Shown piece by piece: positions 11,102-38,069 of a stretch of 41,460 nt of DNA. Below the pieces are notes generated by a model that saw only the letters and a list, made by a program, of their open reading frames with translations, was not told the DNA's origin and made no database searches. The position numbers and the translations under genes were made by a program. Within the stretch, counting starts at the first letter, position 1. Each line of letters starts with the position of its first letter. Source of the DNA: a virus (lineage: Duplodnaviria > Heunggongvirae > Uroviricota > Caudoviricetes); IMG/VR virus record IMGVR_UViG_2579778753_000003. The stretch is one strand, 5' to 3'.

Positions 11102-11480
11102 TTCAGGGGGTAAATAGCATTCCCTGAACGATGTCGCAGAGACACAACAGAATGGCCATATTTCTCACGCTGAGCATGAAAAAGGCGTGAGGGCTTTTGA
11201 TTTGATGGGGTGAAAGGTAAGGCCGTCAAAATCGCACTGAGGCAGCGAGAACATACAGTCAACGCGGTGGGATTGCGTAAGAGTCTGACCGTCGATGGTG
11301 GCGATAAACTGGAAGGCGTCGTGAAATTATCTGATTGATACAGGAGCTGGAGAGCCGGGGCATAAATTTTTTATGCCCGGCGAAGCAGCAGACAAGCGAA
11401 GCGCGTCAGTGATGCGGCACCTTGCCGACCACACTTCATAAGTGCAAAATACGAGCAAAGAAATCAATGGAGGCTGTTTT

Positions 11481-12005
11481 ATGGTCATTAATTACAAGCA
11501 GTTACGAGAAAAACGAGAGCAGGTAAAGGAAAGTTTTCGCCGCAATGAAGATCTGACCCCGCTTGTACACCTTGCTCAGGGAATTGTAGATGCTTATGAA
11601 ATCTCTCTGGAGCTGCCATCACAGACATGGACTGATAGCGACGGTAATCGCCAGCATTACGTTTCATGCGGACTGGAAACAACTGAAGGGTTTCGCAGAA
11701 TGCCTTTATCTCAGATTCCTGCCGCTACCCCCAAAGCAAGGGGCGGCAATGATGAGCGAAAACTGATTTTCAGCATTGAGACAGTGGTTGACGACACACC
11801 TGGCGAAGTCGCCTTCGTGCATACTCCTCTTTCGATCGCAATGTATAACGATGAAATACAGGTTCGCGTTAATAATAATATCGTGCCACTTAAAGAAGGT
11901 AATTCACCATACACCACCGTTTGTGAAGCCATTCAATATTACGTTCTCTCTGAAATTGATAATCTCAAGCCTGACGGCACCCAGAAAATGGTTCAACTCT
12001 GGTAA
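11481..12005 (+). CDS. Hypothetical cargo protein
   Basis: ATG at 11481 with GGAGG 7 nt upstream (the track ORF starts at 11442 without a Shine-Dalgarno); 174 aa, no recognisable motif; convergent with the portal gene. Confidence 0.55.
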   Translation: MVINYKQLREKREQVKESFRRNEDLTPLVHLAQGIVDAYEISLELPSQTWTDSDGNRQHYVSCGLETTEGFRRMPLSQIPAATPKARGGNDERKLIFSIETVVDDTPGEVAFVHTPLSIAMYNDEIQVRVNNNIVPLKEGNSPYTTVCEAIQYYVLSEIDNLKPDGTQKMVQLW

Positions 12006-12010
12006 AAAGG

Positions 12011-12036
12011 ACAGCCCCATCACGGGGCTGTTTTTT
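12011..12036. terminator. Bidirectional terminator-like hairpin at convergent gene ends
   Basis: acagcccc-atca-cggggctgt followed by T6 on the plus strand; overlaps the last portal codons. Confidence 0.45.
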
Positions 12037-13066
12037 CATCAAGAAGAGCATAAGAATTAAAACGGATCACCTCTTCGCCAAGCCAGTCATTGATGTGCTT
12101 CATGGCCTCCATGACGGGCATCAGCTCGTTAATTGCGTAAACACGCGCGGCCTTCTCCACATCACCAAACGCACTTTTTTCACCCGGCATCGCCCCCATC
12201 AGTTGCGGCGGAACGCGGTGCGCAGCCAGCACATCATCACGGGATGCCGCCTTAACATTCATGAACTCATCCTTTGCTGTGATCTGCTGGAACGGCAAAA
12301 TTTGCACCCCCTCTTTGCCCCCGTTGGGCGCATGAATGAGCACATTTTTAAACGCACCACCACCACGTGCACCCTGTAGCGTTTCTTTCAGGGAGTCCAT
12401 GCTTTCGCGGTTTACCTGCGCTGCACCGATGTAGATGATGCACCCGGCGTGGGATCCGTTGTCGTAATACAGTTTTCTGAACATGTCCGCCGAATGAGAC
12501 AGGCTGGCCGAGAGTAATGCGCCGAGATATTCCGGCATGCCGTAAATTTCCTGGTTAATGTCAGGATTCATCAGGTGGCACACTTTGCCAGGGCGAAACT
12601 GAAACGCGTCCTTGCCATCCTGCACATACCACCATGATTCAAGATCGCTTCCGCGTCGCATGTATTTCGCCAGGGCGTGCCGTAATTTAAGCGGTTCGCC
12701 GAGCATATTGCTTCGAAGCTCAAGAAATGCGTTACCGAACACAAACCAGTCCAGCGCCAGCGCCGAGAAATCCTGCCGGGAAAGCAGCGGGTGCGGGATG
12801 TAGCAACCGAGTAATACATTGCGCTTAAAGTAAAGCGCAGACTGATGCCAGGACGTTTGCCGGGCAGCTCTTGCCAGACCGTACCAGTCCACCGGGGTTT
12901 CATACCACCGACCGTTATCAGCACAGTACATATTGTCCAGCAGGTCATGCCCGGTCAGGCGGTAAGGACCATCAAATGTGAATGCACTGAGCGACGATTC
13001 TTTCCTGAGCGCATCAGCGAGATCAATGCGTGAACTCATGCGCAATTTTTTATTTTTTCTGCTCAT
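12020..13066 (-). CDS. Q: Portal protein (P2 gpQ-like)
   Basis: 348 aa; ...SWHQSALYFKRN...NPDINQEIYGMPEYL...HRVPPQLMG...GDVEKAARV... resembles recalled gpQ; start overlaps the terminase stop (ATGA). Confidence 0.9.
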   Translation of the reverse strand: MSRKNKKLRMSSRIDLADALRKESSLSAFTFDGPYRLTGHDLLDNMYCADNGRWYETPVDWYGLARAARQTSWHQSALYFKRNVLLGCYIPHPLLSRQDFSALALDWFVFGNAFLELRSNMLGEPLKLRHALAKYMRRGSDLESWWYVQDGKDAFQFRPGKVCHLMNPDINQEIYGMPEYLGALLSASLSHSADMFRKLYYDNGSHAGCIIYIGAAQVNRESMDSLKETLQGARGGGAFKNVLIHAPNGGKEGVQILPFQQITAKDEFMNVKAASRDDVLAAHRVPPQLMGAMPGEKSAFGDVEKAARVYAINELMPVMEAMKHINDWLGEEVIRFNSYALLDEKTAP

Positions 13067-14817
13067 CAGAACTCCATAACCGTGAAACGCTCGTTTTCTC
13101 CTTCGCCGCCAATCGGTTCGTTAATGACAGCAAGCATGGTTGCCCACGCAAGGTCGCCGTGGCTGATCCCCCTCGCACGGTCCGTTTCGTAAGTGATAAA
13201 GCCGCCCGGTGTTTTCACCTTACGCACGGCGTTAAAGGCCGCGACCAGCTCGCGTTCGGCGCGATCGTATTCCCACCGCCCGGCACGCATTATTTGCAGC
13301 ATTTTCAGTACCAGCGACCGTTTTGATGACAGCGTGAAGGTGTACGGAATAGCAGCAGGGAAAAACCGTTTCACTATCTGATAAACAGCCTCCCCGTTCC
13401 CGCCCGTCACATCAATGCCGATGTGTTCCACGTTGTAGCGATACGTGAACTCTTCAATGACTCTGGCCTGTTCTTCAAACTCCAGCCCCTGAACGCGTCG
13501 CGTCTCCACCGTTCGAAAACGGCCACCAGGAACAGCCGGAGGAACCACCACGGACACAGCGCCGCTGTCGCCGTTGCCACTGCTGCCGTTTGCGTCATAT
13601 CCAATCCATACCGGACGATTCCCCATCGGGCGGGGAGCAAAAGGTTTCCAGTCTTTCCAGTCGTCGTATCCATCAACACCGCAGCCAATCAGGATATTCA
13701 GGTTAAATGCCGATTCCCCTTCGCGGACAAACTCACACATATAGAGATTGAGGAACTCGTCTTCGGTGTTTTCATCACGAATTTCGTCGATATCGGTGTG
13801 TTTCCAGCCGTGATTAACCACATCTTCCAGCGTAACAATTTGCCGCCACGTCCGGTCAGGGCAGATAAGCCCGTTATGCAGCGTTTTCCAGTCCACAGAA
13901 AAACGCTGGCGTTTATGCGCGGCCTTTTTCTCGTTCCAGCGGTCGCCGTTCCAGTAGACGTATGCCTCGTGCGTTTCGGTTGATGGCGTGGAGAAGTAGG
14001 TGCGTCGCAGCCCGCTGAGGGTTGCCATAGCGCCAGCCACCTTGCGCAGTTCAGCAAAGCGACTGACCCAGAAAAATTCATCAAAATAAAAATTGCCTGT
14101 GTAGGACTGTGCCGTCGCAGCAGAAGTACCGAGAAAATGCAGTTCTGCGCCGTTGGAGAGGATGATTTTATCGCCCCCTTTCAGCTCCACATCAACTTCA
14201 GATGCAGCCTTCTGAATAATGCTTTTAAACTGGAACGCCTGACGACGCGACGCAGACAAAAAAATCTGGTTACGCTGGTAAGGTTGCGCCACATCGTCAC
14301 GCAGCGCCATCAGCAGTGCTTCCTGTGCAAAATACCAGGTCGCCCCAATCTGTCGGGATTTCAGGATCATCCTGTTACGTATCCCGGCTTCACTGCAAAG
14401 GGTCAGGGAGTCAAACCAGCCCCGCTGATGCCACTCCAGCCTGCTGATGATTTTTTCCCGCAGTGCGGCAATCTGCTCCGGCGTGAAATGATTTTTAAGT
14501 TTTTTCGCCCGGCCTTTCTTTCCTGTGGCCGTCGCATCCGGCTGGCCATCATGCAGTTTTTTAAGCTGCCGGGTCAGCAGGTCTATTTCCTTAAAGTCAC
14601 CACCTGTTTTATTCTGTTTTTCAGTAAGCTGGATGAGGCGCGCATCGATGGACTGCGTGACACGCTGCACGGGTGGCGTTTCATCCCACTGGTCGCGTTT
14701 TTTCCACGCATAAATCGTGTTCGGGTTTATTCCCATCAGACGTGATATTTCTGCGGGCGGATAACCCTGCCAGTAAAGTTGCCGCGCACGCTGGCGCACA
14801 AAAGCGTCCTGAATCAT
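13066..14817 (-). CDS. P: Terminase large (ATPase) subunit (P2 gpP-like)
   Basis: 583 aa immediately upstream of the portal on the same strand; the long soluble ORF matches the gpP position and size. Confidence 0.9.
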   Translation of the reverse strand: MIQDAFVRQRARQLYWQGYPPAEISRLMGINPNTIYAWKKRDQWDETPPVQRVTQSIDARLIQLTEKQNKTGGDFKEIDLLTRQLKKLHDGQPDATATGKKGRAKKLKNHFTPEQIAALREKIISRLEWHQRGWFDSLTLCSEAGIRNRMILKSRQIGATWYFAQEALLMALRDDVAQPYQRNQIFLSASRRQAFQFKSIIQKAASEVDVELKGGDKIILSNGAELHFLGTSAATAQSYTGNFYFDEFFWVSRFAELRKVAGAMATLSGLRRTYFSTPSTETHEAYVYWNGDRWNEKKAAHKRQRFSVDWKTLHNGLICPDRTWRQIVTLEDVVNHGWKHTDIDEIRDENTEDEFLNLYMCEFVREGESAFNLNILIGCGVDGYDDWKDWKPFAPRPMGNRPVWIGYDANGSSGNGDSGAVSVVVPPAVPGGRFRTVETRRVQGLEFEEQARVIEEFTYRYNVEHIGIDVTGGNGEAVYQIVKRFFPAAIPYTFTLSSKRSLVLKMLQIMRAGRWEYDRAERELVAAFNAVRKVKTPGGFITYETDRARGISHGDLAWATMLAVINEPIGGEGENERFTVMEF

Positions 14818-23228: not shown

Positions 23229-25331
23229 ATGAGTACCACAACACGAAAATTTAAAACCGTTATCACCGATACGGGTGCAAAAAAATTAGCTCAGGCAGCC
23301 GCGCCAGATGGTAAGCCTGTCCGCCTGACTCATATGGCCGTGGGCGACGGTGGCGGCACGTTGCCCACACCAGACAGTAAGCAGACCCGTCTGGTGCATG
23401 AGGTGTGGCGACACACTGTTAATCGCGTCATCCTGGACGCAACACATCAGAACCGCATTATTGCGGAGCTGGTTATTCCTCCTGAAACGGGCGGATTCTG
23501 GATCCGGGAAATTGGTGTATTTGATGAGCACGGCGATTTAATCGCGGTGGGCAATACTGCCGAAAGTTACAAACCAACCGTTGCCGAAGGGTCCGGACGT
23601 GCGCAAACATTTCGCACCATTCTGACCGTATCCAGCACTGCCACCGTGGCGCTTACCGTGGATAACACCATGGTGATGGCCACAGTGGATTACGTGGATG
23701 ACAAACTGAAAGAGCATGAACAGTCACGACGTCACCCGGATGCCTCGCTGACCGCAAAAGGCTTTGTTCAACTCAGTAGCGCCACTAACAGCGATTCTGA
23801 AACGCTGGCTGCAACGCCGAAAGCGGTTAAGGCCGCGTATGACCTGGCTAACGGAAAATATACCGCTCAGGACGCCACGACGGCACGAAAAGGGATAGTC
23901 CAGCTCAGCAGTGCAACCAACAGCACGTCTGAAACGCTGGCAGCGACACCAAAAGCGGTTAAGGCGGTAATGGATGAAACGAACAAGAAAGCCCCATTAA
24001 ACAGCCCGGCACTGACCGGAACGCCAACAACACCAACTGCACAACAGGGAACGAATAATACCCAAATCGCAAGCACGGCTTTCGTTATGGCCGCGATTGC
24101 CGCACTTGTAGACTCTTCACCTGACGCACTGAACACGCTGAACGAGCTGGCGGCGGCGCTGGGCAACGACCCGAATTTTGCGACCACCATGACTAACGCG
24201 CTTGCGGGTAAGCAACCGAAAGATGCCACCCTGACGGCGCTGGCCGGGCTTGCTACTGCAGCAGACAGGTTTCCGTATTTTACGGGGAATGATGTTGCCA
24301 GTCTGGCAACCCTGACAGAAGTCGGGCGGGATATTCTTGCGAAATCGACCGTTGCCGCTGTTATCGAATACCTCGGTTTACAGGAAACGGTAAATCAGGC
24401 TTCTGGCGCATTACAGAAAAACCAGAACGGCGCAGATATTCCGGGAAAAGATACCTTCACCAAAAATATTGGGGCCTGCCGCGCATATAGCGCATGGCTG
24501 GATATTGGTGGCGATAGTCAGGTCTGGACAACCGCGCAATTTATTTCGTGGCTGGAGAGTCAGGGAGCATTTAACCATCCTTACTGGATGTGCAAAGGCT
24601 CATGGGCTTATGCAAATAATAAGGTCATTACAGATACAGGTTGCGGAAATATTTGTCTTGCAGGTGCTGTGGTGGAAGTTATTGGCACTCGCGGCGCAAT
24701 GACCATACGCGTTACCACGCCGAGCACGTCCAGCGGTGGCGGAATTACTAACGCTCAATTCACTTATATTAATCATGGTGATGCTTACGCTCCTGGCTGG
24801 CGACGAGACTACAACACGAAAAATCAACAACCTGCATTTGCTTTAGGGCAAACAGGAAGCACTGTCGGAAATGATAAAGCTGTTGGCTGGAACTGGAATA
24901 GCGGGGTCTATAACGCAAACATTGGTGGCGCATCGACATTAATCCTCCACTTCAATATGAATACGGGGAGCTGCCCTGCTGTACAGTTCCGCGTGAATTA
25001 CAGGAACGGCGGTATTTTTTATCGTTCAGCGCGTGATGGTTATGGATTTGAGGCTGACTGGTCAGAGTTTTACACCACGACCCGCAAACCCTCTGCGGGA
25101 GATGTTGGTGCATACACGCAGGCAGAATGTAACTCAAGGTTTATTACAGGTATTCGCCTTGGCGGTCTGTCATCTGTTCAGACATGGAATGGTCCCGGCT
25201 GGTCTGACAGGTCAGGTTATGTCGTTACGGGTTCAGTTAACGGAAACCGTGATGAATTAATTGATACAACTCAGGCAAGGCCAATTCAGTATTGCATTAA
25301 TGGGACGTGGTATAACGCGGGGAGTATTTAA
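23229..25331 (+). CDS. H: Tail fibre protein (gpH-like), constant N-terminus fused to variable C-terminal cassette 1
   Basis: 700 aa with SSATNS.SETLAATPKAVKA repeats; a recombination site at 24361-24386 lies in-frame (encoding [10 protein letters not shown]). Confidence 0.85.
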   Translation: MSTTTRKFKTVITDTGAKKLAQAAAPDGKPVRLTHMAVGDGGGTLPTPDSKQTRLVHEVWRHTVNRVILDATHQNRIIAELVIPPETGGFWIREIGVFDEHGDLIAVGNTAESYKPTVAEGSGRAQTFRTILTVSSTATVALTVDNTMVMATVDYVDDKLKEHEQSRRHPDASLTAKGFVQLSSATNSDSETLAATPKAVKAAYDLANGKYTAQDATTARKGIVQLSSATNSTSETLAATPKAVKAVMDETNKKAPLNSPALTGTPTTPTAQQGTNNTQIASTAFVMAAIAALVDSSPDALNTLNELAAALGNDPNFATTMTNALAGKQPKDATLTALAGLATAADRFPYFTGNDVASLATLTEVGRDILAKSTVAAVIEYLGLQETVNQASGALQKNQNGADIPGKDTFTKNIGACRAYSAWLDIGGDSQVWTTAQFISWLESQGAFNHPYWMCKGSWAYANNKVITDTGCGNICLAGAVVEVIGTRGAMTIRVTTPSTSSGGGITNAQFTYINHGDAYAPGWRRDYNTKNQQPAFALGQTGSTVGNDKAVGWNWNSGVYNANIGGASTLILHFNMNTGSCPAVQFRVNYRNGGIFYRSARDGYGFEADWSEFYTTTRKPSAGDVGAYTQAECNSRFITGIRLGGLSSVQTWNGPGWSDRSGYVVTGSVNGNRDELIDTTQARPIQYCINGTWYNAGSI
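24361..24386. other. Invertase crossover site gixL-like
   Basis: ttatcgaatacc-tc-ggtttacaggaa, matching the recalled Gin/Cin/Pin site (ttatccaaaacc-tc-ggtttacaggaa). Confidence 0.7.
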
Positions 25332-25333
25332 CG

Positions 25334-25867
25334 ATGATGCACTTAAAAAACATTACTGCTGGCAACCCTAAAACAAAAGAGCAATACCAGCTAACGAAAC
25401 AATTTAACATCAAATGGCTTTATTCAGAGAATGGAAAAAACTGGTATGAGGAACAAAAGAATTTCCAGCCAGACACTTTGAAAATGGTCTATGACCATAA
25501 CGGCGTTATTATTTGTATTGAAAAGGATGTTTCAGCAATTAATCCGGAAGGCGCAAGCGTCGTTGAATTACCTGATATTACAGCAAATCGCCGTGCTGAC
25601 ATTTCGGGTAAATGGATGTTCAAAGATGGCGTAGTGGTAAAGCGAACTTATACCGAGGAAGAGCAGAGGCAGCAGGCGGAAAATGAAAAGCAAAGCCTGC
25701 TACAGCTCGTTAGGGATAAAACCCAGCTATGGGACTCACAGCTACGGCTGGGCATCATTTCCGACGAGAATAAACAAAAATTAACCGAGTGGATGCTCTA
25801 TGCGCAGAAAGTCGAATCTACAGACACCTCCAGCCTGCCAGTAACATTTCCCGAACAACCTGAATGA
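25334..25867 (+). CDS. G: Tail fibre assembly protein (gpG-like), partner of cassette 1
   Basis: 177 aa immediately after the tail fibre gene. Confidence 0.85.
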   Translation: MMHLKNITAGNPKTKEQYQLTKQFNIKWLYSENGKNWYEEQKNFQPDTLKMVYDHNGVIICIEKDVSAINPEGASVVELPDITANRRADISGKWMFKDGVVVKRTYTEEEQRQQAENEKQSLLQLVRDKTQLWDSQLRLGIISDENKQKLTEWMLYAQKVESTDTSSLPVTFPEQPE

Positions 25868-25895
25868 GACAAGGCCCGATAGCGGGCCTTAATTT

Positions 25896-26423
25896 TTATT
25901 CAGGCTTTTGTGGCCATTCAGGATTTGCCGTATCCACACGGCTGACCAGAACACTGTAGCGTTCCCATGCTTCCAGTCGTGTGCGTTCCTCGTCTGTTGC
26001 CATATTCAGCCTGACAGCGCGTTCCAGCGGCTGGATGACTGATTCAGCTTCGGAAAGCAATGCGGCCTTTTGTGATTCGGCTTGTTGTTGCTGTTCGTCT
26101 GCCGTATAAATCCGTTTAACTACAGCTCCATCCTTAAACATCCACTTTCCTGAATCATCAGCGCGGCGGTTGGCTGTAATATCTGGAACCTCAACGACGC
26201 TAAAACCTTCAGGGTTAAGCGTGGAGGCATCTTTAGTGATGGCGACAATAATATTATTTGCATCGTAAACAATCTTTATTGTGTCTGGCTGAAAGTTTTT
26301 CACTTCCTCATACCAGTTTTTTCCGTCCTCAGAGTAAAGCCAGATAACTCCGTGTTTCTTTGTTAACTCATACTGTTCCAGTGTTTTAGCGTTACCCGCT
26401 TTTATGTTCTTTAAGTGCATCAT
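25896..26423 (-). CDS. Alternative tail fibre assembly protein, partner of cassette 2
   Basis: 175 aa, about 50% identical to the gpG-like protein (MMHLKNI.AGN.KT.EQY.LTK...), inverted orientation. Confidence 0.8.
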
Positions 26424-26424
26424 A

Positions 26425-27449
26425 TTAAACGCTCGCTACATTATACCAGGTGCCATTTATATACTTTTGAACGGGTCTGTAATAAACGCCCGCTATATTA
26501 TCGGCAGAGTTGGACCCTGTATCCTGAACATTAATACCAGACAATACATGACCTGACGGGCACTGGAAATTCCATGTTTGCCAGTTGTTCACTCTATAAT
26601 ATTGCTGTGAACCAAGTCGAACATCTTTCACATATCTGGAATCAAAATTGCCATAGTTGCCGGGAATAACTTGCGCACCGCAAAGCCAGTTTCCGTTATT
26701 ATCCATGTACGCCTGACCATCGGTGCCATTGGCTGTCCTTGAATTATTAATCATGTAGATGCCAAATTGCTTATTTCCCAGACCGCCAATCATAAATTTG
26801 CGGTCGGCATGGTCCTGACGGAGCAAAGCCTGAGCACCATCAGTGGATACCGCATTACGTCCCATAATAACGTTCTGGTCACGCATATGAATCCACATGC
26901 CTGTACTGCTGTTAATTAAAAAACGGTTTGCAAATATATCTCCTGTAACATCCAGACCATGCCCCATAGTTATGCGACCAGTTCTGAGATTAAGCGTAAA
27001 GGGGCGTAGTGGCCCTATATCGCCATTTTCCCCCTCATTTTCTCGGGTAGGGATGATATGAAGACATTCTTCAGAACGGCGAAAAATAGCACCAAAAGAT
27101 GAATTAAATATCCTCAGTGCATTGACTGTCGATATTTTTACTTCACTGCTGAAAAGGGCTTTAACAAGAACAGACAAAGCATCCCATTTAAGATTCATCA
27201 GGTCTTTTGTTGTGGTGCTTTGTTTGCTTCTCCATTTGAAATATTCATTGCCGTTGTCGCCTGTTTCAAACCACATGTATGAATCAGTATCGCTGTCGGC
27301 ATCATTTTTAAAACCAATCTTTGCCCAGTCAGTATTCCGAATCCAGGCAAGGATTGAGTCGTTTTCAAAAGTAAGCCCACCGGACAAGATATCGCCTGTC
27401 TTTTGGACGGCGTTACCAGCCTTGTTTACCGTTTCCTGTAAACCGAGGT
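26425..27449 (-). CDS. Alternative tail fibre C-terminal cassette 2 (promoterless in this orientation)
   Basis: Frame is open from the centre through ...[30 protein letters not shown]...; no ATG start; would fuse to the constant tail-fibre N-terminus after inversion. Confidence 0.7.
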
Positions 27450-27450
27450 A

Positions 27451-28475
27451 ACCTCGGTTTACAGGAAACGGTAAACAAGGCTGGTAACGCCGTCCAAAAG
27501 ACAGGCGATATCTTGTCCGGTGGGCTTACTTTTGAAAACGACTCAATCCTTGCCTGGATTCGGAATACTGACTGGGCAAAGATTGGTTTTAAAAATGATG
27601 CCGACAGCGATACTGATTCATACATGTGGTTTGAAACAGGCGACAACGGCAATGAATATTTCAAATGGAGAAGCAAACAAAGCACCACAACAAAAGACCT
27701 GATGAATCTTAAATGGGATGCTTTGTCTGTTCTTGTTAAAGCCCTTTTCAGCAGTGAAGTAAAAATATCGACAGTCAATGCACTGAGGATATTTAATTCA
27801 TCTTTTGGTGCTATTTTTCGCCGTTCTGAAGAATGTCTTCATATCATCCCTACCCGAGAAAATGAGGGGGAAAATGGCGATATAGGGCCACTACGCCCCT
27901 TTACGCTTAATCTCAGAACTGGTCGCATAACTATGGGGCATGGTCTGGATGTTACAGGAGATATATTTGCAAACCGTTTTTTAATTAACAGCAGTACAGG
28001 CATGTGGATTCATATGCGTGACCAGAACGTTATTATGGGACGTAATGCGGTATCCACTGATGGTGCTCAGGCTTTGCTCCGTCAGGACCATGCCGACCGC
28101 AAATTTATGATTGGCGGTCTGGGAAATAAGCAATTTGGCATCTACATGATTAATAATTCAAGGACAGCCAATGGCACCGATGGTCAGGCGTACATGGATA
28201 ATAACGGAAACTGGCTTTGCGGTGCGCAAGTTATTCCCGGCAACTATGGCAATTTTGATTCCAGATATGTGAAAGATGTTCGACTTGGTTCACAGCAATA
28301 TTATAGAGTGAACAACTGGCAAACATGGAATTTCCAGTGCCCGTCAGGTCATGTATTGTCTGGTATTAATGTTCAGGATACAGGGTCCAACTCTGCCGAT
28401 AATATAGCGGGCGTTTATTACAGACCCGTTCAAAAGTATATAAATGGCACCTGGTATAATGTAGCGAGCGTTTAA
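27451..28475 (+). CDS. Duplicate (mirror) copy of cassette 2
   Basis: Identical translation to 26425-27387 on the opposite strand. Confidence 0.65.
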
Positions 28476-28476
28476 T

Positions 28477-29004
28477 ATGATGCACTTAAAGAACATAAAA
28501 GCGGGTAACGCTAAAACACTGGAACAGTATGAGTTAACAAAGAAACACGGAGTTATCTGGCTTTACTCTGAGGACGGAAAAAACTGGTATGAGGAAGTGA
28601 AAAACTTTCAGCCAGACACAATAAAGATTGTTTACGATGCAAATAATATTATTGTCGCCATCACTAAAGATGCCTCCACGCTTAACCCTGAAGGTTTTAG
28701 CGTCGTTGAGGTTCCAGATATTACAGCCAACCGCCGCGCTGATGATTCAGGAAAGTGGATGTTTAAGGATGGAGCTGTAGTTAAACGGATTTATACGGCA
28801 GACGAACAGCAACAACAAGCCGAATCACAAAAGGCCGCATTGCTTTCCGAAGCTGAATCAGTCATCCAGCCGCTGGAACGCGCTGTCAGGCTGAATATGG
28901 CAACAGACGAGGAACGCACACGACTGGAAGCATGGGAACGCTACAGTGTTCTGGTCAGCCGTGTGGATACGGCAAATCCTGAATGGCCACAAAAGCCTGA
29001 ATAA
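28477..29004 (+). CDS. Duplicate (mirror) copy of the alternative tail fibre assembly gene
   Basis: Identical translation to 25896-26423 on the opposite strand. Confidence 0.7.
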
Positions 29005-29032
29005 AAATTAAGGCCCGCTATCGGGCCTTGTC

Positions 29033-29566
29033 TCATTCAGGTTGTTCGGGAAATGTTACTGGCAGGCTGGAGGTGTCTGTAGATTCGACTTTCTGCGCAT
29101 AGAGCATCCACTCGGTTAATTTTTGTTTATTCTCGTCGGAAATGATGCCCAGCCGTAGCTGTGAGTCCCATAGCTGGGTTTTATCCCTAACGAGCTGTAG
29201 CAGGCTTTGCTTTTCATTTTCCGCCTGCTGCCTCTGCTCTTCCTCGGTATAAGTTCGCTTTACCACTACGCCATCTTTGAACATCCATTTACCCGAAATG
29301 TCAGCACGGCGATTTGCTGTAATATCAGGTAATTCAACGACGCTTGCGCCTTCCGGATTAATTGCTGAAACATCCTTTTCAATACAAATAATAACGCCGT
29401 TATGGTCATAGACCATTTTCAAAGTGTCTGGCTGGAAATTCTTTTGTTCCTCATACCAGTTTTTTCCATTCTCTGAATAAAGCCATTTGATGTTAAATTG
29501 TTTCGTTAGCTGGTATTGCTCTTTTGTTTTAGGGTTGCCAGCAGTAATGTTTTTTAAGTGCATCAT
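29033..29566 (-). CDS. Duplicate (mirror) copy of the gpG-like tail fibre assembly gene
   Basis: Identical translation to 25334-25867 on the opposite strand. Confidence 0.7.
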   Translation of the reverse strand: MMHLKNITAGNPKTKEQYQLTKQFNIKWLYSENGKNWYEEQKNFQPDTLKMVYDHNGVIICIEKDVSAINPEGASVVELPDITANRRADISGKWMFKDGVVVKRTYTEEEQRQQAENEKQSLLQLVRDKTQLWDSQLRLGIISDENKQKLTEWMLYAQKVESTDTSSLPVTFPEQPE

Positions 29567-29568
29567 CG

Positions 29569-30508
29569 TTAAATACTCCCCGCGTTATACCACGTCCCAT
29601 TAATGCAATACTGAATTGGCCTTGCCTGAGTTGTATCAATTAATTCATCACGGTTTCCGTTAACTGAACCCGTAACGACATAACCTGACCTGTCAGACCA
29701 GCCGGGACCATTCCATGTCTGAACAGATGACAGACCGCCAAGGCGAATACCTGTAATAAACCTTGAGTTACATTCTGCCTGCGTGTATGCACCAACATCT
29801 CCCGCAGAGGGTTTGCGGGTCGTGGTGTAAAACTCTGACCAGTCAGCCTCAAATCCATAACCATCACGCGCTGAACGATAAAAAATACCGCCGTTCCTGT
29901 AATTCACGCGGAACTGTACAGCAGGGCAGCTCCCCGTATTCATATTGAAGTGGAGGATTAATGTCGATGCGCCACCAATGTTTGCGTTATAGACCCCGCT
30001 ATTCCAGTTCCAGCCAACAGCTTTATCATTTCCGACAGTGCTTCCTGTTTGCCCTAAAGCAAATGCAGGTTGTTGATTTTTCGTGTTGTAGTCTCGTCGC
30101 CAGCCAGGAGCGTAAGCATCACCATGATTAATATAAGTGAATTGAGCGTTAGTAATTCCGCCACCGCTGGACGTGCTCGGCGTGGTAACGCGTATGGTCA
30201 TTGCGCCGCGAGTGCCAATAACTTCCACCACAGCACCTGCAAGACAAATATTTCCGCAACCTGTATCTGTAATGACCTTATTATTTGCATAAGCCCATGA
30301 GCCTTTGCACATCCAGTAAGGATGGTTAAATGCTCCCTGACTCTCCAGCCACGAAATAAATTGCGCGGTTGTCCAGACCTGACTATCGCCACCAATATCC
30401 AGCCATGCGCTATATGCGCGGCAGGCCCCAATATTTTTGGTGAAGGTATCTTTTCCCGGAATATCTGCGCCGTTCTGGTTTTTCTGTAATGCGCCAGAAG
30501 CCTGATTT
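29569..30508 (-). CDS. Duplicate (mirror) copy of cassette 1 (promoterless)
   Basis: Translation identical to the tail-fibre C-terminus; frame is open up to the gixR-like site. Confidence 0.65.
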
Positions 30509-30513
30509 ACCGT

Positions 30514-30539
30514 TTCCTGTAAACCGAGGTTTTAGATAA
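30514..30539. other. Invertase crossover site gixR-like
   Basis: ttcctgtaaacc-ga-ggttttagataa; mirror of the left site with two outer-arm mismatches; 37 bp upstream of the invertase gene. Confidence 0.7.
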
Positions 30540-30575
30540 TGGCCGTTTCCGGCCTGCATGGCATGATTTGCGCTT

Positions 30576-31181
30576 TTGGACGGGAGATTCAGCGTGCTGA
30601 TTGGCTATGTAAGGGTATCAACAAATGACCAGAATACAGACCTGCAACGAAACGCTCTTGTTTGTGCAGGATGTGAACAAATATTTGAAGATAAATTAAG
30701 CGGGACAAAGACAGACCGACCGGGATTAAAACGCGCTTTAAAGCGCCTTCAAAAAGGTGACACGCTGGTTGTCTGGAAACTGGATCGCCTCGGGCGAAGC
30801 ATGAAACATCTGATTTCTCTCGTCGGGGAACTACGGGAGCGAGGAATTAATTTTCGCAGTCTGACCGACAGCATAGATACATCTTCTCCAATGGGGCGTT
30901 TTTTCTTCCACGTGATGGGTGCCCTGGCTGAAATGGAACGTGAATTAATTGTTGAACGTACACTGGCCGGACTGGCGGCAGCACGCGCACGGGGGCGCAC
31001 AGGCGGACGTCGACCGAAGCTGACAAAAGAACAGCATGAGCAAATAGCAAGGCTGATCAAAAACGGGCACGACAGAAAACAACTGGCAATAATTTACGGC
31101 ATTGGTATATCGACGATTTATCGTTACCACCCCGCAGGAGAATCAATCGGAACAATAGAGAAGAGTCAGGAAACAAAATAA
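30576..31181 (+). CDS. Serine DNA invertase (Gin/Cin/Pin/Hin family)
   Basis: LIGYVRVSTNDQNTDLQRNAL...DTLVVWKLDRLGRSMKHLI... with a C-terminal helix-turn-helix (GISTIYRY); an alternative GTG start at 30594 gives the canonical N-terminus. Confidence 0.9.
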   Translation: MDGRFSVLIGYVRVSTNDQNTDLQRNALVCAGCEQIFEDKLSGTKTDRPGLKRALKRLQKGDTLVVWKLDRLGRSMKHLISLVGELRERGINFRSLTDSIDTSSPMGRFFFHVMGALAEMERELIVERTLAGLAAARARGRTGGRRPKLTKEQHEQIARLIKNGHDRKQLAIIYGIGISTIYRYHPAGESIGTIEKSQETK

Positions 31182-31212
31182 CCGCTAATCTGACCATTAG
31201 CGGTTTTTGTGT
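31182..31212. terminator. Bidirectional intrinsic terminator
   Basis: ccgctaat-ctgacc-attagcgg (8-bp stem) followed by TTTTTGT on the plus strand and a U-rich run on the minus strand; lies between the convergent invertase and gpU-like genes. Confidence 0.6.
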
Positions 31213-31216
31213 TAAA

Positions 31217-31711
31217 TCAGAACAGCCCTTTAACTGAACTGGCCGCGCTGTTAAGAGATGATGTCACCTTATCTTTGAAGCCGGACAGCATATCGCTGAA
31301 TGATGAGGATTGCAGGCGCTCCCGCAAATCCTCATCACAGCGTTCAAGGGTCAGTGAAAATTCTATCTTTTTCGCCTTACCGTAGCGATCAAACTCGGAA
31401 CGGGTCGTATTCGTTTCAGTCAGCACATACATGCCGTAAATCTGCCCGACACCATCAATCAGAGGCCAGGGGCGTCCTGTATATGCCTGCGTGGTCAGCA
31501 ACGAAAGCGACACTTCGCCACCTGTAATTTCAGGATAAAGCACGCCGGAAAGCACAATGCGATCATCACCTGCACCTATATACTGCCAGCTTGCTGAACG
31601 GTTAACGCGTTCATTTTTCACATGCCGCCAGCTTTTGTTTTGCTGTAACTGCTGATGCGGCAGTGTGCGCAGCTCAAAAACAAACATGCCGTAGATCATC
31701 ATCATGACCAT
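31217..31711 (-). CDS. U: Tail protein (P2 gpU-like)
   Basis: N-terminus MVMMMIYGMFVFELRTLPHQQ resembles recalled gpU (MMMVLGLFVFMLQTVPYQE). Confidence 0.8.
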   Translation of the reverse strand: MVMMMIYGMFVFELRTLPHQQLQQNKSWRHVKNERVNRSASWQYIGAGDDRIVLSGVLYPEITGGEVSLSLLTTQAYTGRPWPLIDGVGQIYGMYVLTETNTTRSEFDRYGKAKKIEFSLTLERCDEDLRERLQSSSFSDMLSGFKDKVTSSLNSAASSVKGLF

Positions 31712-31717
31712 GACTCC

Positions 31718-34534
31718 TCAATCTTTATCGTAAAAACTGCCACGTCCGGCACGGGCGCGCCGTTCCATCTCTGCCCTGACCATTTCACCGACCAGTTTCG
31801 CCAGTTCGCGGGGATTCTGCGTAACAACGTTATGCAGATGAACATGAATTTCACCGCCAAATCTGGAGACAGCAGGCTCCCGGTTACGGGAAGCTGCAGG
31901 AACTGATGCCACTGGCGATCGTATGGCCTCCGCCACCGGGCGGGAGCTGGCCGCAACAACAGGGACCAGCGCCGGAGGCAGCGGAGCCGGGACTACGGGT
32001 GTGATATTAATTGCGGGGGCAGGCTTACTGACCTGCGCAATCTTCCGCTCCTGCCACTCCCCACGAACAGCAAGTGCGCGGGGCAGGTTCTTAAAGACAA
32101 TATCGCCAGGGCCAATGCGTTTTTTCGTCTCATCAACCAGCTTACCTGTGTTATCAGCAATTTTGCTGAGTCTGCGTAGCGTCCCGGTATTGCTGTCTGT
32201 GAGCGGTTTGTTGTCTTTGGGTTTATCACCTCCGGTGCCATTGCCATTTTCCACAGGCTTCGGCGGATTGATTTTCGCAAGGTCCCCCTGAAGCAAGGCA
32301 ACCTTGTCCTGAAGAATGGCCGCACGCTGTGCGTCTTCGATTTTCTTGCGCGCCTTTTCCGCTTCATCCGGAAGGACGCCAAGTTTTTCAAGTATCCACG
32401 CCAGCGTATCCAGTAGCATTTTTGCAGGTGTCAGAACAAGCTGTAACGCACCGCCAAGAACGTTACCGAATATCTCGCCAGCACTGGTACATTTATCCAG
32501 CGTTTCCTTGCTGGACTCCATCGGTGACAGCAGCGATTTAAACCAGTTAAACACCTGGCTGATCCCGCTTCCGATTGCGTCAAAAACAGGACCAAACCGT
32601 TCAAAGGTTTCGCGCAACGGGGTCAGCCTTTCCATAATCCCGCTGAACACCCCGGCAAAAAATGCCCTGATGGGATCCCAGTATTTCCAGATAAGAACGG
32701 CAGCTCCGGCAAGCGCAGCCACGATAAGACCAACCGGACTGATCAGCGCCCCGATAGCGCCTCCCAGTAAAGAAACGGAACCCGTCACCATTCCCCATAG
32801 TGCTGGCAGGACCCTGACAGCATTCATTGATCCGGTCAGGAGAGAAAAACCGAGACGTAACGTAGCCAGCTTCCCGTGAAGCACCCCAATAACCAGAGAC
32901 AACGAACCAACCGTTGCTGTTGTCGCCAGCAGTGCACCTCCCGCTATCAGTAACTGGCGCGTCAGTGCCGGATGGGCCTGCGCCAGTGCCGTCACTTTTG
33001 AGACCACCCGCGTGAGCCACTGCGTGACAGAACGCAGCGGACCGTCAATCAGATCTGCAATGCGGATTCGCAACCCTTCCCATGCACTGCCGAGTGATTT
33101 CAGATCGCCGTCAAGGTTGTTGGCCATAACCTTTGCTGTGCGTTCAGCCTCACCGCGCGCGCCTTCAAGTTCTTTTCTCAGTTTGGGTAAGGAACCGTCA
33201 CCCGCTGCATCAACGAGCGCCATAAACGATGTGAAAGCCTCTTCTCCGGCAATGTCCTTAAAGAACGATACCCGGTCAACTTCCCCGTATTTGCGGGTGG
33301 CTTTATAAAGGTCGGCCAGCACATCCTCCATCGGGCGCATTTTGCCCCCGGCATCCGAGACGGACACGCCCAGCTCTTTCAGAGCTTCTGCCGCCGCCTT
33401 TGGCGGTGATGCCAGACGAGCCAGGCTGGCACGCATTGCCGTCCCGGCATCACTCCCTCTGATGCCCATATTCGCCAGCACGCCAGCCATCGCTGCGGCC
33501 TGCTCCAGCGATATTCCCAGCTTACCCGCCACCGGACCTGCATATTTCATGGTTTCGCCCAGTGCGCGAAGGTCAGTGTTGGTACGGGTAAACGCTGCGG
33601 TGAGTGTGTCACCGACCCGGTCCATCTGGTCAGCAGAAAGGCCGAACTGCGTCAGGATATTTGAGCCAATATCTGCCGTCTCGCCGAGATCCATACCGCC
33701 AGCCGTTGCCATGCTCAGCACGCCGGGAAGCGCAGCCTGAATGGCCTGCGGAGTGAAGCCAGCCATTGCAAGAAATGCCTGTCCACTGGCGGCATCGCCT
33801 GCGGTGAACTGCGTTTCAGAGCCAAGTTTTAACGCCTGCTCACGCAGCGCCTTAAACTGCGGGCTGTTCTGGTCGATTCGCGTCAGTGCCTGAACGCGGG
33901 ACATCTCTTTGCCGAACCCGATCGCAGGCTGCAAAAAACGCCCGGCAGCATAGCCGCCCGCCGCTGCCGCACCAATTGCCAGCGCACCACCTGTTTTCAG
34001 TTTTCCCGCTGTTTCCTGCGCGCGCGAATACCGCTCACGCGCCCGCGTTACACGCGCAAGCGCCTGCCGTTCGCGTTCAAGCTGGTTGTTGTACTGTTCG
34101 GTGCGTCTGATGGCCTGCTGGATGGTGTTATCGCTGCCTGTCAGGGAAATGCCGTGGCGTTTCAGCTCTCCGCCAAGCTCCCGCATTTTCTGAATTTCCC
34201 GTGTGCGCGATTCATTCAGGCGTTCAAGCCGGGTGCTTAACTGCTGCATCAGCTTTTGTTGTTTTTCGCTGAGCACTGTACCCGTGCGTTGTAACTGATT
34301 AAGGGCGTTAAGCTGGCGTCGTGCTTTCACGATGCCAGCATCCGCTTTACTGACAGCGTCACGGGCGCGCTCAAATGAACGCGCCTGACGCTCGAGATTT
34401 TTGATCGCCCCCTGCGTTCGCTGGATGGAGTCACCAAACTGCCCCATCAGGCGGCGGGCGTTTTCGGCAGGCCGGGTCAGCCTGTCAACGGCGCTGAAAG
34501 CGACCCGGATATCAAGAGTCTTCATTATCTGCAT
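31718..34534 (-). CDS. T: Tail tape measure protein (P2 gpT-like)
   Basis: 938 aa, coiled-coil N-terminal half and glycine/alanine-rich hydrophobic middle, upstream of the gpU-like gene. Confidence 0.85.
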   Translation of the reverse strand: MQIMKTLDIRVAFSAVDRLTRPAENARRLMGQFGDSIQRTQGAIKNLERQARSFERARDAVSKADAGIVKARRQLNALNQLQRTGTVLSEKQQKLMQQLSTRLERLNESRTREIQKMRELGGELKRHGISLTGSDNTIQQAIRRTEQYNNQLERERQALARVTRARERYSRAQETAGKLKTGGALAIGAAAAGGYAAGRFLQPAIGFGKEMSRVQALTRIDQNSPQFKALREQALKLGSETQFTAGDAASGQAFLAMAGFTPQAIQAALPGVLSMATAGGMDLGETADIGSNILTQFGLSADQMDRVGDTLTAAFTRTNTDLRALGETMKYAGPVAGKLGISLEQAAAMAGVLANMGIRGSDAGTAMRASLARLASPPKAAAEALKELGVSVSDAGGKMRPMEDVLADLYKATRKYGEVDRVSFFKDIAGEEAFTSFMALVDAAGDGSLPKLRKELEGARGEAERTAKVMANNLDGDLKSLGSAWEGLRIRIADLIDGPLRSVTQWLTRVVSKVTALAQAHPALTRQLLIAGGALLATTATVGSLSLVIGVLHGKLATLRLGFSLLTGSMNAVRVLPALWGMVTGSVSLLGGAIGALISPVGLIVAALAGAAVLIWKYWDPIRAFFAGVFSGIMERLTPLRETFERFGPVFDAIGSGISQVFNWFKSLLSPMESSKETLDKCTSAGEIFGNVLGGALQLVLTPAKMLLDTLAWILEKLGVLPDEAEKARKKIEDAQRAAILQDKVALLQGDLAKINPPKPVENGNGTGGDKPKDNKPLTDSNTGTLRRLSKIADNTGKLVDETKKRIGPGDIVFKNLPRALAVRGEWQERKIAQVSKPAPAINITPVVPAPLPPALVPVVAASSRPVAEAIRSPVASVPAASRNREPAVSRFGGEIHVHLHNVVTQNPRELAKLVGEMVRAEMERRARAGRGSFYDKD

Positions 34535-34778
34535 TCCCGCTGCGAAGTGCCGCCCGCTCGCGCCAGCTAACCACTTCGCCGGGCGTCATCATGAAGATTT
34601 CGGCGGGCGACCAGTTAAAAATGGCGGCAATATCCGCCACCAGATCTTCGATGTGCTCAAAGCACACCAGGGTGATTACGCTGCCGTCTCCTGCACGCTC
34701 TTCGCGCCAGAGTCTGGCTCGCTCATAAAATTTACAGCCACAGCGCACAACTGAATAAAATCGCGTGACGACATTTTT
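34512..34778 (-). other. E' frameshift extension (programmed -1 shift from the gpE frame)
   Basis: The -1 frame is open from the A7 slippery run (mRNA AUUAAAAAAAUG, plus-strand T7 at 34774-34780) to 34512, overlapping the 3' end of the gpE-like gene and the tape-measure start. Confidence 0.5.
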
Positions 34779-35050
34779 TTAATCATCACTTCATCCAGTC
34801 GTGGCGAGGTCACGCGAGGCAACAGCGTAAACATGGTATCCGCTTTCAGATTCAGCACATCAGACAGCGACAGACCACGCAGGGATCCAGCCTGCTCAAT
34901 AGCCCCGGTGATCTCCACATACGTGATTTTTTCGCCACCACGCTCAATTGGTCGGGTCAGTTTTACGCCACGTTCGACAGCCATATCCTCACCTGCCGTC
35001 ACATCATCCGCCACGGTGTTATTCCGGGTTTCAGTATCGATGTCTTTCAT
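34676..35050 (-). CDS. E: Tail assembly chaperone (P2 gpE-like)
   Basis: 124 aa with AAGGAG Shine-Dalgarno; sits between the tube and tape-measure genes and has a slippery A7 run near its 3' end. Confidence 0.7.
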   Translation of the reverse strand: MKDIDTETRNNTVADDVTAGEDMAVERGVKLTRPIERGGEKITYVEITGAIEQAGSLRGLSLSDVLNLKADTMFTLLPRVTSPRLDEVMIKKMSSRDFIQLCAVAVNFMSEPDSGAKSVQETAA

Positions 35051-35105
35051 CAGTTGTCTCCTTTTCAGTCAGAGGCGACGCACTGCGCCGCCTGCATATT
35101 ACTTA

Positions 35106-35618
35106 TCAGCCAAGCCCAAGCGCGGAACGGATACGGTCAGGCACAATGTCCTTGCCGTCCTTCCGGTAGATGTGGTTCAACAGGTCGATTTCCCACAGCG
35201 GGCGATCGTTAACGCTCAGCTTGTAGTAGGTGTTTTTGACAGCGTAAGTGTGTGATGTGGCTTCGCCCTGTTTGGCTTCCCCCATATCAATTTCCGTCAC
35301 ACGCCCGCGCATCTCGATTTCATACAGATCGCTTTCTGCATCGGTGTAGTATTCACCCGCAAAACGCAGCAGCGTGCCGTCAATCGTGCCGCCATATTTA
35401 AGGAACAGCGCACGAACAGCTCCCCCCATGACAAAACTCGCATCAAGCGCGGAGTCGTCCAGACCGAGATCAATACTTACCGCCCCCATCATGCCACCAC
35501 CACGATAGCTGTCGGTTTTGCGCGTCAGTTTGGGCGGCGTGACGGATGTCACTTTACCCACTTCGTTTTCACCATCCACAAACAACGTAAAAAAGCGAAG
35601 ATGTTTTGGTACAGCCAT
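35106..35618 (-). CDS. FII: Tail tube protein (P2 gpFII-like)
   Basis: 170 aa directly after the sheath gene. Confidence 0.85.
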   Translation of the reverse strand: MAVPKHLRFFTLFVDGENEVGKVTSVTPPKLTRKTDSYRGGGMMGAVSIDLGLDDSALDASFVMGGAVRALFLKYGGTIDGTLLRFAGEYYTDAESDLYEIEMRGRVTEIDMGEAKQGEATSHTYAVKNTYYKLSVNDRPLWEIDLLNHIYRKDGKDIVPDRIRSALGLG

Positions 35619-36802
35619 CAGGCACCTCCCAGCACCGCAAATGCGGGACCAAAGAATTCATCAGTAAACGTCTGGTAAAGCTCCATGTCTTCCAGCGGGG
35701 GAACAGGCGTATATTTGTAGCGAATACGCACACGTCCCTGACGTAAATTCGTGGTGCCGTTATCCACCACGTCATACCAGCACTCCGCACCAATCAGTTT
35801 CCCGGCAGTAACCAGCGAATCCAGTTTTGCCCTGATGGCGCTGATAACATCCTTCACGTTCGCAGGTGTCAGTGGACTGTCGATGGTTTCAAACTGCGCT
35901 TCCGCAATTGAATCAGCCAGCACCTGTGCGGTTCGGGTATACACCTCAAAGATGTAGGCGTTCGTTTCCGGTGTGCGGTTGCCCCAGAAGCGGAACCCGT
36001 TGCGACGAATAATGGTCGTGATTTCTTTGTTGTTGAGGCTGTTGGCATCGCTGTCTTCGGCCTGCAACGACCAGAACACATGCCTGGACATTCCCAGCAC
36101 ATTTTTAACCGGAACGTTGGACAGCGATTTGTGCCAGCCCTGCTCATGGTCAATGTACGCACGAAGGCCGCACGCATAAGCAGGCGCGGGGAACGTTTCG
36201 TTTTTGCCACTTTTCGGGTTGTAGGCGATGAAGTCCGGCCATAAGAGCATCACCTCACGTTCGTTGAATTTCTGGCGGTAGGTAATCGCCTCAGCCATCG
36301 TGTTACAGCCGTGACATGAGGCATACACAAACGCGCGCAGTTTACCTGCAATCACGCACAGGGATTTTGTTACAGCCTCCGTGTCCAGCTCCGGCGCGGC
36401 CAGAATACGCGGACGGTATCCGATGCTTTCATCCTGCTCTGCAACAAGCAGCGCATACATCCCCGTATAGCTGCCGTCATCCTCAGAACCACCGATAACC
36501 AGTTGATCCTGCGTCTTTCCGTCTTCTTCTTTGTGTTCAGCCACGCGAACGACGATCACCTTTGTGCTCACCTGGTCTGCGATGGCCTTAAGCGCACGAT
36601 AAAGCGTCCCCGTTGTCCCGCATTTTCCCAGCACGTCATTGACGCGGGTCAGCAGTGTGGGCTTATTCAGCGGGAACAGCTTCGCGTCCGCATCATCCGC
36701 CGTTGCCACGATACCGATAACGCTGGAATCAACATCGTTAATCGCTGTTACCAGGTCGGTATTTTCCGTAACACGGGCACCATGAAAACGAGTTTCACTC
36801 AT
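35618..36802 (-). CDS. FI: Tail sheath protein (P2 gpFI-like)
   Basis: 394 aa; first gene of the sheath-tube-chaperone-tape measure-gpU block. Confidence 0.9.
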   Translation of the reverse strand: MSETRFHGARVTENTDLVTAINDVDSSVIGIVATADDADAKLFPLNKPTLLTRVNDVLGKCGTTGTLYRALKAIADQVSTKVIVVRVAEHKEEDGKTQDQLVIGGSEDDGSYTGMYALLVAEQDESIGYRPRILAAPELDTEAVTKSLCVIAGKLRAFVYASCHGCNTMAEAITYRQKFNEREVMLLWPDFIAYNPKSGKNETFPAPAYACGLRAYIDHEQGWHKSLSNVPVKNVLGMSRHVFWSLQAEDSDANSLNNKEITTIIRRNGFRFWGNRTPETNAYIFEVYTRTAQVLADSIAEAQFETIDSPLTPANVKDVISAIRAKLDSLVTAGKLIGAECWYDVVDNGTTNLRQGRVRIRYKYTPVPPLEDMELYQTFTDEFFGPAFAVLGGA

Positions 36803-36959
36803 AGCTTCAGCCCCTTGTATCCGTTAAATGATTCGGCAACAATCATCACCCACCACGCGCGTAATCTCACCCCTGCGCCGTTCTCCCGACCCGGCGACAA
36901 CAAAAAGCAGTACCCCCCTCCGCACGCACATGCGACCATGCCGCACAGGGAGGGAACAG

Positions 36960-38069
36960 ATGACCGACACCACCATGCAATTGCTCAGTCAGGGCACGGC
37001 CCCCGTGAAAATGCCGGATTTTGATATTCTCTCGGAGGGTAAAACGCTGTCAGGCGTGGCGGAGCGCCTGATGAGCCTGTCACTGACCGACAACCGGGGA
37101 TTTGAGGCGGACCAGCTCACCATCACGCTGGATGATGCGGATGGTCAGTTGCAGCTACCGCCACGGGGCGCGCGCCTGACGGTTCTCATTGGCTGGAAAG
37201 GAGAACCGCTGACAGAAAAAGGCACTTACATTGTTGATGAAGTCGCTCACGAAGGACCGCCGGACAGGCTGACTGTTTCAGCCAGAAGCGCAGATTTTCG
37301 GGATGAATTTAACGTTAAACGTGAGGTGTCCTGGCATGATGTGACCGTTGAGCGTGTGGTATCCGCCATCGCTCATCGGTATGGTCTGAAACCACAAATC
37401 AGCGAAATGCTGATGGATATCGAAATCGACCACGCCGACCAGACCGAAGAAAGCGACATGTCCTTCCTTACGCGCATGGCGGAAATGCTGGGCGCAATCA
37501 CCACGGTAAAAAGCGGCAATCTGTTATTCATCATGCCAGGTGGTGGCGTGAACGCACAGGGCCAGCCGTTGCCCTCGTTCGCCATTACACGCAGCAGCGG
37601 CGATCGCCATCAGTTCCGTATTGCTGACCGCGAGGCGTATACGGGGGTACGCGCCTACTGGCTTGATCTTAATTACGGGAAAAAGAAAAAAGTCAGCGTG
37701 AAACGCCGCAAACCACCAAAACCCCAAAAGGAGAAAAGCAGCAGCCGTGAAGGTGATTATATGGAAGGCGCGGAAGGCAATGTGTTTGTGTTACGCAAGA
37801 CCTATCAGAACGAACAGGCAGCAAGACGCGCAGCGGCGGCAAAGTGGCAGCAACTACAACGCGGAGCCGCATCATTCTCCATCACGCTGGCGCGTGGACG
37901 TGCAGAACTCTACCCCGAAATGCATGGTACGGTAACAGGATTTAAAAGCGAGATTGATAATCAGGACTGGATCATTGCAAAAGCCGAGCACACTATTGAT
38001 AACAGCGGCTTTACCACGCAGCTTGAGCTTGAGGCAAAAATCCCGGAATGGATAGCGGAAACAGAGTGA
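36960..38069 (+). CDS. D: Tail protein / late control protein D (P2 gpD-like)
   Basis: ATG at 36960 with AGGGAGGG upstream (the track ORF from 36828 has no Shine-Dalgarno); about 369 aa. Confidence 0.8.
   Translation: MTDTTMQLLSQGTAPVKMPDFDILSEGKTLSGVAERLMSLSLTDNRGFEADQLTITLDDADGQLQLPPRGARLTVLIGWKGEPLTEKGTYIVDEVAHEGPPDRLTVSARSADFRDEFNVKREVSWHDVTVERVVSAIAHRYGLKPQISEMLMDIEIDHADQTEESDMSFLTRMAEMLGAITTVKSGNLLFIMPGGGVNAQGQPLPSFAITRSSGDRHQFRIADREAYTGVRAYWLDLNYGKKKKVSVKRRKPPKPQKEKSSSREGDYMEGAEGNVFVLRKTYQNEQAARRAAAAKWQQLQRGAASFSITLARGRAELYPEMHGTVTGFKSEIDNQDWIIAKAEHTIDNSGFTTQLELEAKIPEWIAETE

Follow-up and report, generated by a model that had tools for sequence, protein, structure and literature searches.

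Sequence evidence for a Gin/Cin-type tail-fibre inversion switch in a P2-like prophage of Escherichia coli

In a P2-like Escherichia coli prophage of the P88/Xuanwuvirus type, lodged between pdxB and flk, the tail-fibre gene very probably belongs to a Gin/Cin-type inversion switch, by which one of two receptor-binding ends, each with its own assembly protein, would be joined to a common fibre shaft. The stretch of DNA analyzed (41,460 nucleotides, hereafter the window) contains two inverted gix-like sites, two fibre cassettes and an invertase gene, and genomes of other E. coli strains carry near-identical prophages in either orientation. The window displays the invertible segment twice; this doubling is an artefact of assembly and scaffolding, and in the genome itself the segment is present once. 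Feature coordinates are collected in Table 1.

Table 1. Features of the tail-fibre inversion locus, in window coordinates.
Feature	Position	Strand	Description
Tail-fibre gene (P2 H-like)	23229..25331	+	700 aa; constant part Sc (to about 24372) plus cassette A
Crossover site L	24361..24386	+	26 bp, TTATCGAATACC-TC-GGTTTACAGGAA; central TC at 24373-24374
Shared core ACCTCGGTTTACAGGAAACGGTAAA	24370..24394	+	25 nt, perfect in every inverted-repeat copy
Variable cassette A	24396..25331	+	311 aa, expressed receptor-binding end; homologue of the Mu S' variable part
Assembly protein of cassette A	25334..25867	+	177 aa; Pfam Caudo_TAP; 97% identical to Mu U'
Terminator-like hairpin between convergent assembly genes	25871..25890	+	Consensus match only
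Assembly protein of cassette B	25896..26423	-	175 aa; Pfam Caudo_TAP; 91% identical to Mu U; silent in window orientation
Variable cassette B	26425..27449	-	Silent in window orientation; Mu S-like mosaic; Pfam Gp34_trimer
Scaffold gap	27450	.	"A" in the window, "N" in public record KK736492.1
Second segment copy	27451..30530	.	Cassette B and chaperone on +, chaperone and cassette A on -; assembly duplicate
Crossover site R	30514..30539	-	TTATCTAAAACC-TC-GGTTTACAGGAA on the minus strand
DNA invertase, serine recombinase family	30594..31181	+	195 aa, GTG start at 30594
Candidate recombinational enhancer stretch	30612..30683	+	nt 19-90 of the invertase gene; position as annotated in P1 cin
Two-way terminator-like hairpin, invertase gene versus convergent gpU gene	31180..31205	.	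Consensus match only

A P2-like prophage with two gix-like sites

The window covers a whole P2-like prophage, from the integrase gene to flk, and is colinear with the prophage found between pdxB and flk in E. coli MDR_56. Of the phage records, that of P88 (genus Xuanwuvirus) matches the window best; P88 has the same gene order, down to the FI-U tail block, which is encoded on the other strand. A search for gix-like secondary sites that would explain this inverted tail block yielded none above background.

Crossover sites were searched for across the 41-kb window with the pattern TTATCNAANACCTCGGTTTACAGGAA, allowing up to three mismatches, and the outcome was compared with that for 100 shuffles. 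Exactly two matches were found, namely sites L and R, and none was expected from the shuffled sequences. The two 26-bp sites have imperfect dyad symmetry, are inverted relative to each other and have the same TC centre, as is characteristic for the sites of an invertase switch. Aligned with known invertase sites, they match Mu gix (TTATCCAAAACC-TC-GGTTTACAGGAA in the annotated Mu record) at 24 (site L) and 25 (site R) of 26 positions, with the centre and the inner half-site of both identical to gix. Both sites are also identical to those of phage P88. P1 cix differs from them in having TT as its central dinucleotide and in having other half-sites (TTATCCAATACC-TT-GGTTTAAGAGAA in the annotated P1 record).

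Site L lies in frame within the 700-aa tail-fibre ORF, as a preliminary description of this DNA had claimed, and its residues are VIEYLGLQE. Together with the shared sequence downstream it encodes V378-389, the central TC falling within codon L382. The two pattern matches, taken with the open alternative fusion reported below, confirm the crossover site that the preliminary description had pointed out.

Two in-frame ends for one fibre

The tail-fibre ORF matches the Pfam families Phage_tail_fib and Phage_fiber_2, and has a P2-type tail-collar fibre N-terminus and fibre repeats. The frame of cassette B is open from the shared core (LGLQETVN) down to a stop at 26425. When the constant part is joined to the reverse complement of 24370-27449, an uninterrupted protein of 721 aa results, versus 700 aa for the fusion present in the window. 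It had been proposed that the minus-strand cassette stays open through the LGLQETVN junction, and the 721-aa fusion bears this out.

The silent cassette lacks its own start codon. In the relative L003, which has a single copy of the segment, the silent frame is closed by a TAA that sits in site R, within its outer half, one codon before the crossover and the shared core. Promoter scans within the segment gave matches no more numerous than in shuffled sequence, which is weak evidence. The outcome of these scans agrees with promoterless cassettes.

The two alternative C-termini had been regarded as unrelated in sequence. This is correct over most of their length, but the C-terminal ~75 residues share 35% identity (E 2e-7) and the ending INGTWYN. 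The two assembly proteins are also more similar than the earlier estimate of about 50% identity suggested, as the computed value is 58%. The locus has the composition of a fibre-switching module, with a crossover site within the fibre gene, alternative C-termini in frame and a separate assembly chaperone for each cassette. Inversion had been expected to swap the C-terminal domain together with its partner assembly protein, and the two convergent cassette-Caudo_TAP pairs that we find between the inverted sites support this.

An invertase related to Gin

The invertase matches the Pfam families Resolvase (1.5e-50) and HTH_7 (1.8e-13), which places it among the serine recombinases, and Ser9 in the motif YVRVS is invariant in an alignment with Gin and Cin. 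Overall, the protein is 98% identical to the P88 enzyme, 81% identical to Mu Gin and 72% identical to P1 Cin. It is nearly identical to Gin across the first 120 residues, whereas the C-terminal DNA-binding domain has diverged, with about 52% nucleotide identity to Mu gin over the last 200 nt. Invertases of the Gin/Cin family are interchangeable between sites, and on this basis we assume that the window enzyme would recognize gix-like sites. The list of open reading frames puts the start of the gene at an upstream TTG, at position 30576.

In the P1 record, an inversion enhancer is annotated at nt 19-90 of cin. The corresponding stretch of the window gene is identical to Mu gin at 72 of 72 bases and to P1 cin at 55 of 72, which suggests that it may act as an enhancer and that Fis may play a role here as well. 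By the same analogy, the invertase would be expected to catalyze inversion in this strain.

Relation to other inversion systems

The logic of the locus had been likened to that of the Mu G and P1 C segments. As the cassettes have direct homologues in Mu S'/U' and S/U, this comparison stands, and it is one of homology rather than mere analogy. Cassette A and the variable part of Mu S' share 308 of 311 residues (99%), and cassette B, a mosaic, has 68% amino-acid identity to the C-terminus of Mu S. The layout is also that of the Mu G segment, with two convergent cassette-chaperone pairs and the invertase gene just beyond the right site. Mu is a transposable phage, whereas the module in the window sits in a P2-like prophage, and Mu Sc is unrelated to the constant part of the window fibre, which is P2 H-like. 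DNA similarity to Mu starts exactly at the outer half of site L, with none upstream, so that the locus can be described as a Mu G-segment-plus-gin module on a P2-type fibre shaft.

At the DNA level, the segment is 92-96% identical to P88 and to the corresponding invertible segments in the phages Mu, D108, SfMu and P7. For the P7 C segment, the identity is 92.8% to window positions 24408-27398, which lie within the segment. The P1 C segment with Cin follows the same logic as the window locus, likewise with an enhancer inside the invertase gene. It measures 4256 bp in its record, and relative to S, its invertase gene cin is on the opposite side from the one in the window. The inverted repeats of the P1 C segment are long (about 0.6 kb).

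For P88, the record annotates an invertase and two fibre/assembly gene pairs. The cassette expressed in P88 is a different version, with a fibre gene of 2295 nt versus 2103 or 2166 nt in the window prophage. The paper on P88 host range contains neither "invert" nor "inversion" (0 occurrences).

The Mu record carries the annotation that S is responsible for host range. As cassette A is almost the same as Mu S', this annotation suggests that the two fibres may bind different receptors. Host range may then depend on the orientation of the segment, as the resemblance of cassette A to Mu S'v (99%) and of cassette B to Mu S (68%) also suggests.

Both orientations among E. coli genomes

The E. coli strains GF8 and GF161, chicken-meat isolates from one study, contain the same prophage with the segment in opposite orientations and flanks that are 99.9% identical. 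GF8 has its fibre gene joined to cassette A (2103 nt), and GF161 has it joined to cassette B (2166 nt). The outer half-sites remain with the flanks, and the exchange between the two genomes is confined to the 25-nt core. Judging from these sequences, strand exchange must fall inside this core (24370-24394).

In a set of 5426 complete E. coli genomes, 126 contain sequence running across the Sc-A junction, and 358 do so for the reconstructed Sc-B junction. Inversion of the segment with outer half-sites that stay with the flanks is thus documented by the GF8/GF161 pair, by the presence of both junction types and by source contigs in opposite orientations (see below). Independent draft assemblies are interrupted at these repeats. 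A contig of 3028 nt, present in three samples, consists of the segment interior only and is cut at both repeats, and another independent draft contig starts right after the shared core.

These data also bear on the possibility that the architecture is intact, but the switch silent and held in one fixed orientation, the doubling in the window then being due to a mis-walk of the assembler through the 25-nt repeat. An assembler with k ≤25 could indeed mis-walk the 25-nt core and produce a second contig without any heterogeneity, so that the doubled segment alone is no proof of active inversion. We nevertheless consider a silent switch improbable, given that near-identical prophages occur in both orientations and that other draft assemblies likewise break at the repeats. 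Moreover, the invertase ORF is intact and has its catalytic serine, the stretch at the enhancer position is the same as in Mu gin, and both sites are intact with identical central dinucleotides.

That comparable segments of P2-like prophages undergo phase variation in culture is a further argument against a silent switch. The P2-like prophages of EPEC E2348/69 have invertible tail-fibre loci with Hin-family invertases (Goldberg et al., 2014; PMC4272514), and according to sequencing, both orientations of the tail-fibre segments coexist in clonal cultures (PMC4272514). One EPEC E2348/69 locus has three repeats and four variants in a shufflon-like arrangement, whereas the window locus has two complete sites only.

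An apparent palindrome across a scaffold gap

From 24370 to 30530 the window reads as a perfect palindrome (6.16 kb), with 3080-nt arms that show zero differences and a single centre base at 27450 (CCGAGGT-A-ACCTCGG). The whole invertible segment is therefore present twice in the window, as mirror images. An exact-protein look-up of the fibre returned two records, CP159994.1 and KK736492.1 (GCA_000692755.1). CP159994.1 is a complete genome that encodes an identical H protein and has one segment copy. The KK736492.1 scaffold carries the doubled segment, and matches window positions 13229-35331 (22,103 bases) except for base 27450. Since KK736492.1 has an N at this position, the palindrome centre is a one-N scaffold gap, and the doubling of the segment in the window results from the joining of two contigs over this single letter. 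What concealed the artefact is that the window has a base in place of the gap character. A literature search on the assembly accession GCA_000692755.1 found nothing.

The left contig runs up to 27449 and the right one from 27451 onward; these two positions are the last bases common to both possible flanks. The order is Sc-L-A><B in the left contig and B><A-R-invertase in the right one. In the simplest reading, assembly proceeded from each flank through the single segment, in one orientation from the left and in the other from the right, as far as the branch point, and the two resulting contigs were then scaffolded adjacent to each other. The sequenced culture probably contained both orientations. 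The "left/right" layout of the window is distorted by the assembly artefact.

It is very unlikely that the mirror duplication is real, i.e., that two head-to-head copies form a palindrome of ~6.2 kb with an unsequenceable centre, even though the window and the source scaffold both show the segment twice and the scaffolder set the two contigs adjacent. The centre is an N gap and not sequence, the contigs stop precisely at the divergence of the flanks, where a graph assembler would stop, and the arms are without differences over their entire length. The palindrome centre is spanned in 0 of the 5426 complete E. coli genomes, and it is absent from pattern scans of three collections (viral_contigs, genome_contigs and metagenome_contigs). 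A continuously sequenced centre and support in other assemblies, as would be looked for in a large natural palindrome, are thus both lacking. In addition, CP159994.1, with its identical H protein, has a single copy, and long perfect palindromes are not stable in wild-type E. coli because of SbcCD. If the duplication were real, a long palindrome would be tolerated in the E. coli chromosome, inversion between the outer sites would be silent, as it leaves the order of genes unchanged, and the fibre could not leave its Mu S'-like state A.

Several mechanisms for the origin of the centre were considered. A Gin crossover would create a join at the central GA/TC, 4 nt from the observed centre, and since the centre lies outside the crossover dinucleotide, normal Gin chemistry cannot give it. 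Fold-back priming at a Gin-made break predicts a different centre, and a de Bruijn hairpin predicts a centre of even length. All of these mechanisms were dropped after the source record showed an N at 27450. A four-site, shufflon-like reading (a multi-site system such as p15B Min) was rejected because only two complete sites exist; the partial sites at the centre are the contig ends that flank the N.

Dispensing with the invertase altogether, one could attribute the between-strain inversions to general, RecA-dependent recombination between the inverted repeats of 25-50 nt, which is hardly credible: the genome comparison narrows the exchange only to the 25-nt core, in which the central dinucleotide and the rest are indistinguishable, but a 25-nt perfect repeat is a poor RecA substrate, and every component of a dedicated invertase system is present, with 95-100% conservation of the catalytic domain and the enhancer-position stretch between the window and Mu.

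Proposed switch and implications

In the Gin/Cin-type switch that we favor, the invertase would pair the inverted sites L and R, and by analogy with Gin and Cin, a Fis-dependent enhancer inside the invertase gene would assemble the synapse together with host Fis. Strands would be exchanged at the central TC/GA dinucleotide, and the segment of roughly 3.1 kb between the sites would flip. The late operon, running through V-W-J-I-H, would continue either into cassette A and its chaperone or into cassette B and its chaperone. As gene H reads through site L in frame and the repeat encodes LGLQETVN, the same N-terminal 380-odd residues would be combined with a different receptor-binding C-terminus in each orientation. 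Orientation A would yield a Mu S'/U'-like fibre of 700 aa and orientation B a Mu S/U-like fibre of 721 aa. The unexpressed cassette, devoid of a start codon, would be shut by the TAA within the outer half-site of R.

Gin/Cin-type switches have been understood since the 1980s. The locus described here is a known system in a common prophage and therefore of low novelty; it adds little biologically, being another copy of a known switch in a prophage present in hundreds of E. coli genomes. Draft scaffolds can carry invertible segments twice, in mirror image, and then mimic giant palindromes or four-site shufflons. Such doublings, and contig breaks at the repeats, hint at the presence of both orientations in culture, so that draft assemblies may be mined for active invertons.

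An assembly gap and a possible recombination boundary

Position 27450 reads 'N' in KK736492.1, the public scaffold from which the window derives, and 'A' in the window. The base is thus a converted scaffold-gap character, and its rewriting makes two contigs appear as unbroken sequence.

When the window was compared with the colinear prophage of E. coli MDR_56, identity was found to shift at the left crossover site, with 97.5-98.6% on the left (window 1-24401) versus 99.65-99.7% on the right (24361-41459). Such a step hints that recombination once took place with its boundary at this site or close to it. An arm of the MDR_56 prophage also carries an IS421 insertion, flanked by the DUF4760 and portal genes (11412-13399 of its locus, L002), which is absent from the window at ~10795-12045.

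Features of the window discussed in this section
Feature	Position	Strand	Remark
ORF	8017-8976		colinear with an MDR_56 prophage gene
Direct repeat, first copy	23738-23833		constant part of fibre gene
Direct repeat, second copy	23870-23965		constant part of fibre gene
Cassette B	27477-28475		silent Mu S-like fibre C-terminus
Invertase gene	30594-31181		
Tail block FI-FII-E-T-U	31217-36802	-	strand opposite to H and the gpD-like gene
gpD-like gene	36828-38069	+	

Mosaic fibre and invertase genes

Relative to Mu S, cassette B is a mosaic: its two ends are near-identical blocks, whereas the middle, at about residues 88-180 within the variable part, is divergent, as is an additional patch close to the C-terminus. 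Within its constant part, the fibre gene contains a 96-nt direct repeat, the two copies of which are 75% identical and correspond to the two Phage_fiber_2 repeats (SATNS.SETLAATPKAVKA).

The invertase gene is likewise mosaic. Compared with the Mu invertase gene gin, identity is 95% over the first 360 nt but only about 52% over the last 200 nt, which encode the DNA-binding domain. The expected target sites of the invertase are almost identical to gix, the Mu crossover site, despite the diverged DNA-binding domain.

An inverted tail block

In P2, the genes from FI through D share the direction of H, whereas in the window the block FI-FII-E-T-U runs opposite. The same inverted block is present in MDR_56 and in L003, a relative with a single copy of the invertible segment, and the portion of the tail block that lies within the locus of P88, the closest phage record, is inverted as well. 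No gix-like sites were found at the borders of the inverted block in the window.

Maintenance genes

By colinearity, the counterpart of the ORF at the left of the window is a gene of the MDR_56 prophage annotated as ParM-like, which in the MDR_56 record is directly followed by a partition/stability gene. A Hok/Gef toxin gene is also annotated in that record, close to the prophage's right end (L002 36836-36976). The ParM-like, partition/stability and Hok/Gef genes are plasmid-type maintenance genes within a P2-like prophage.
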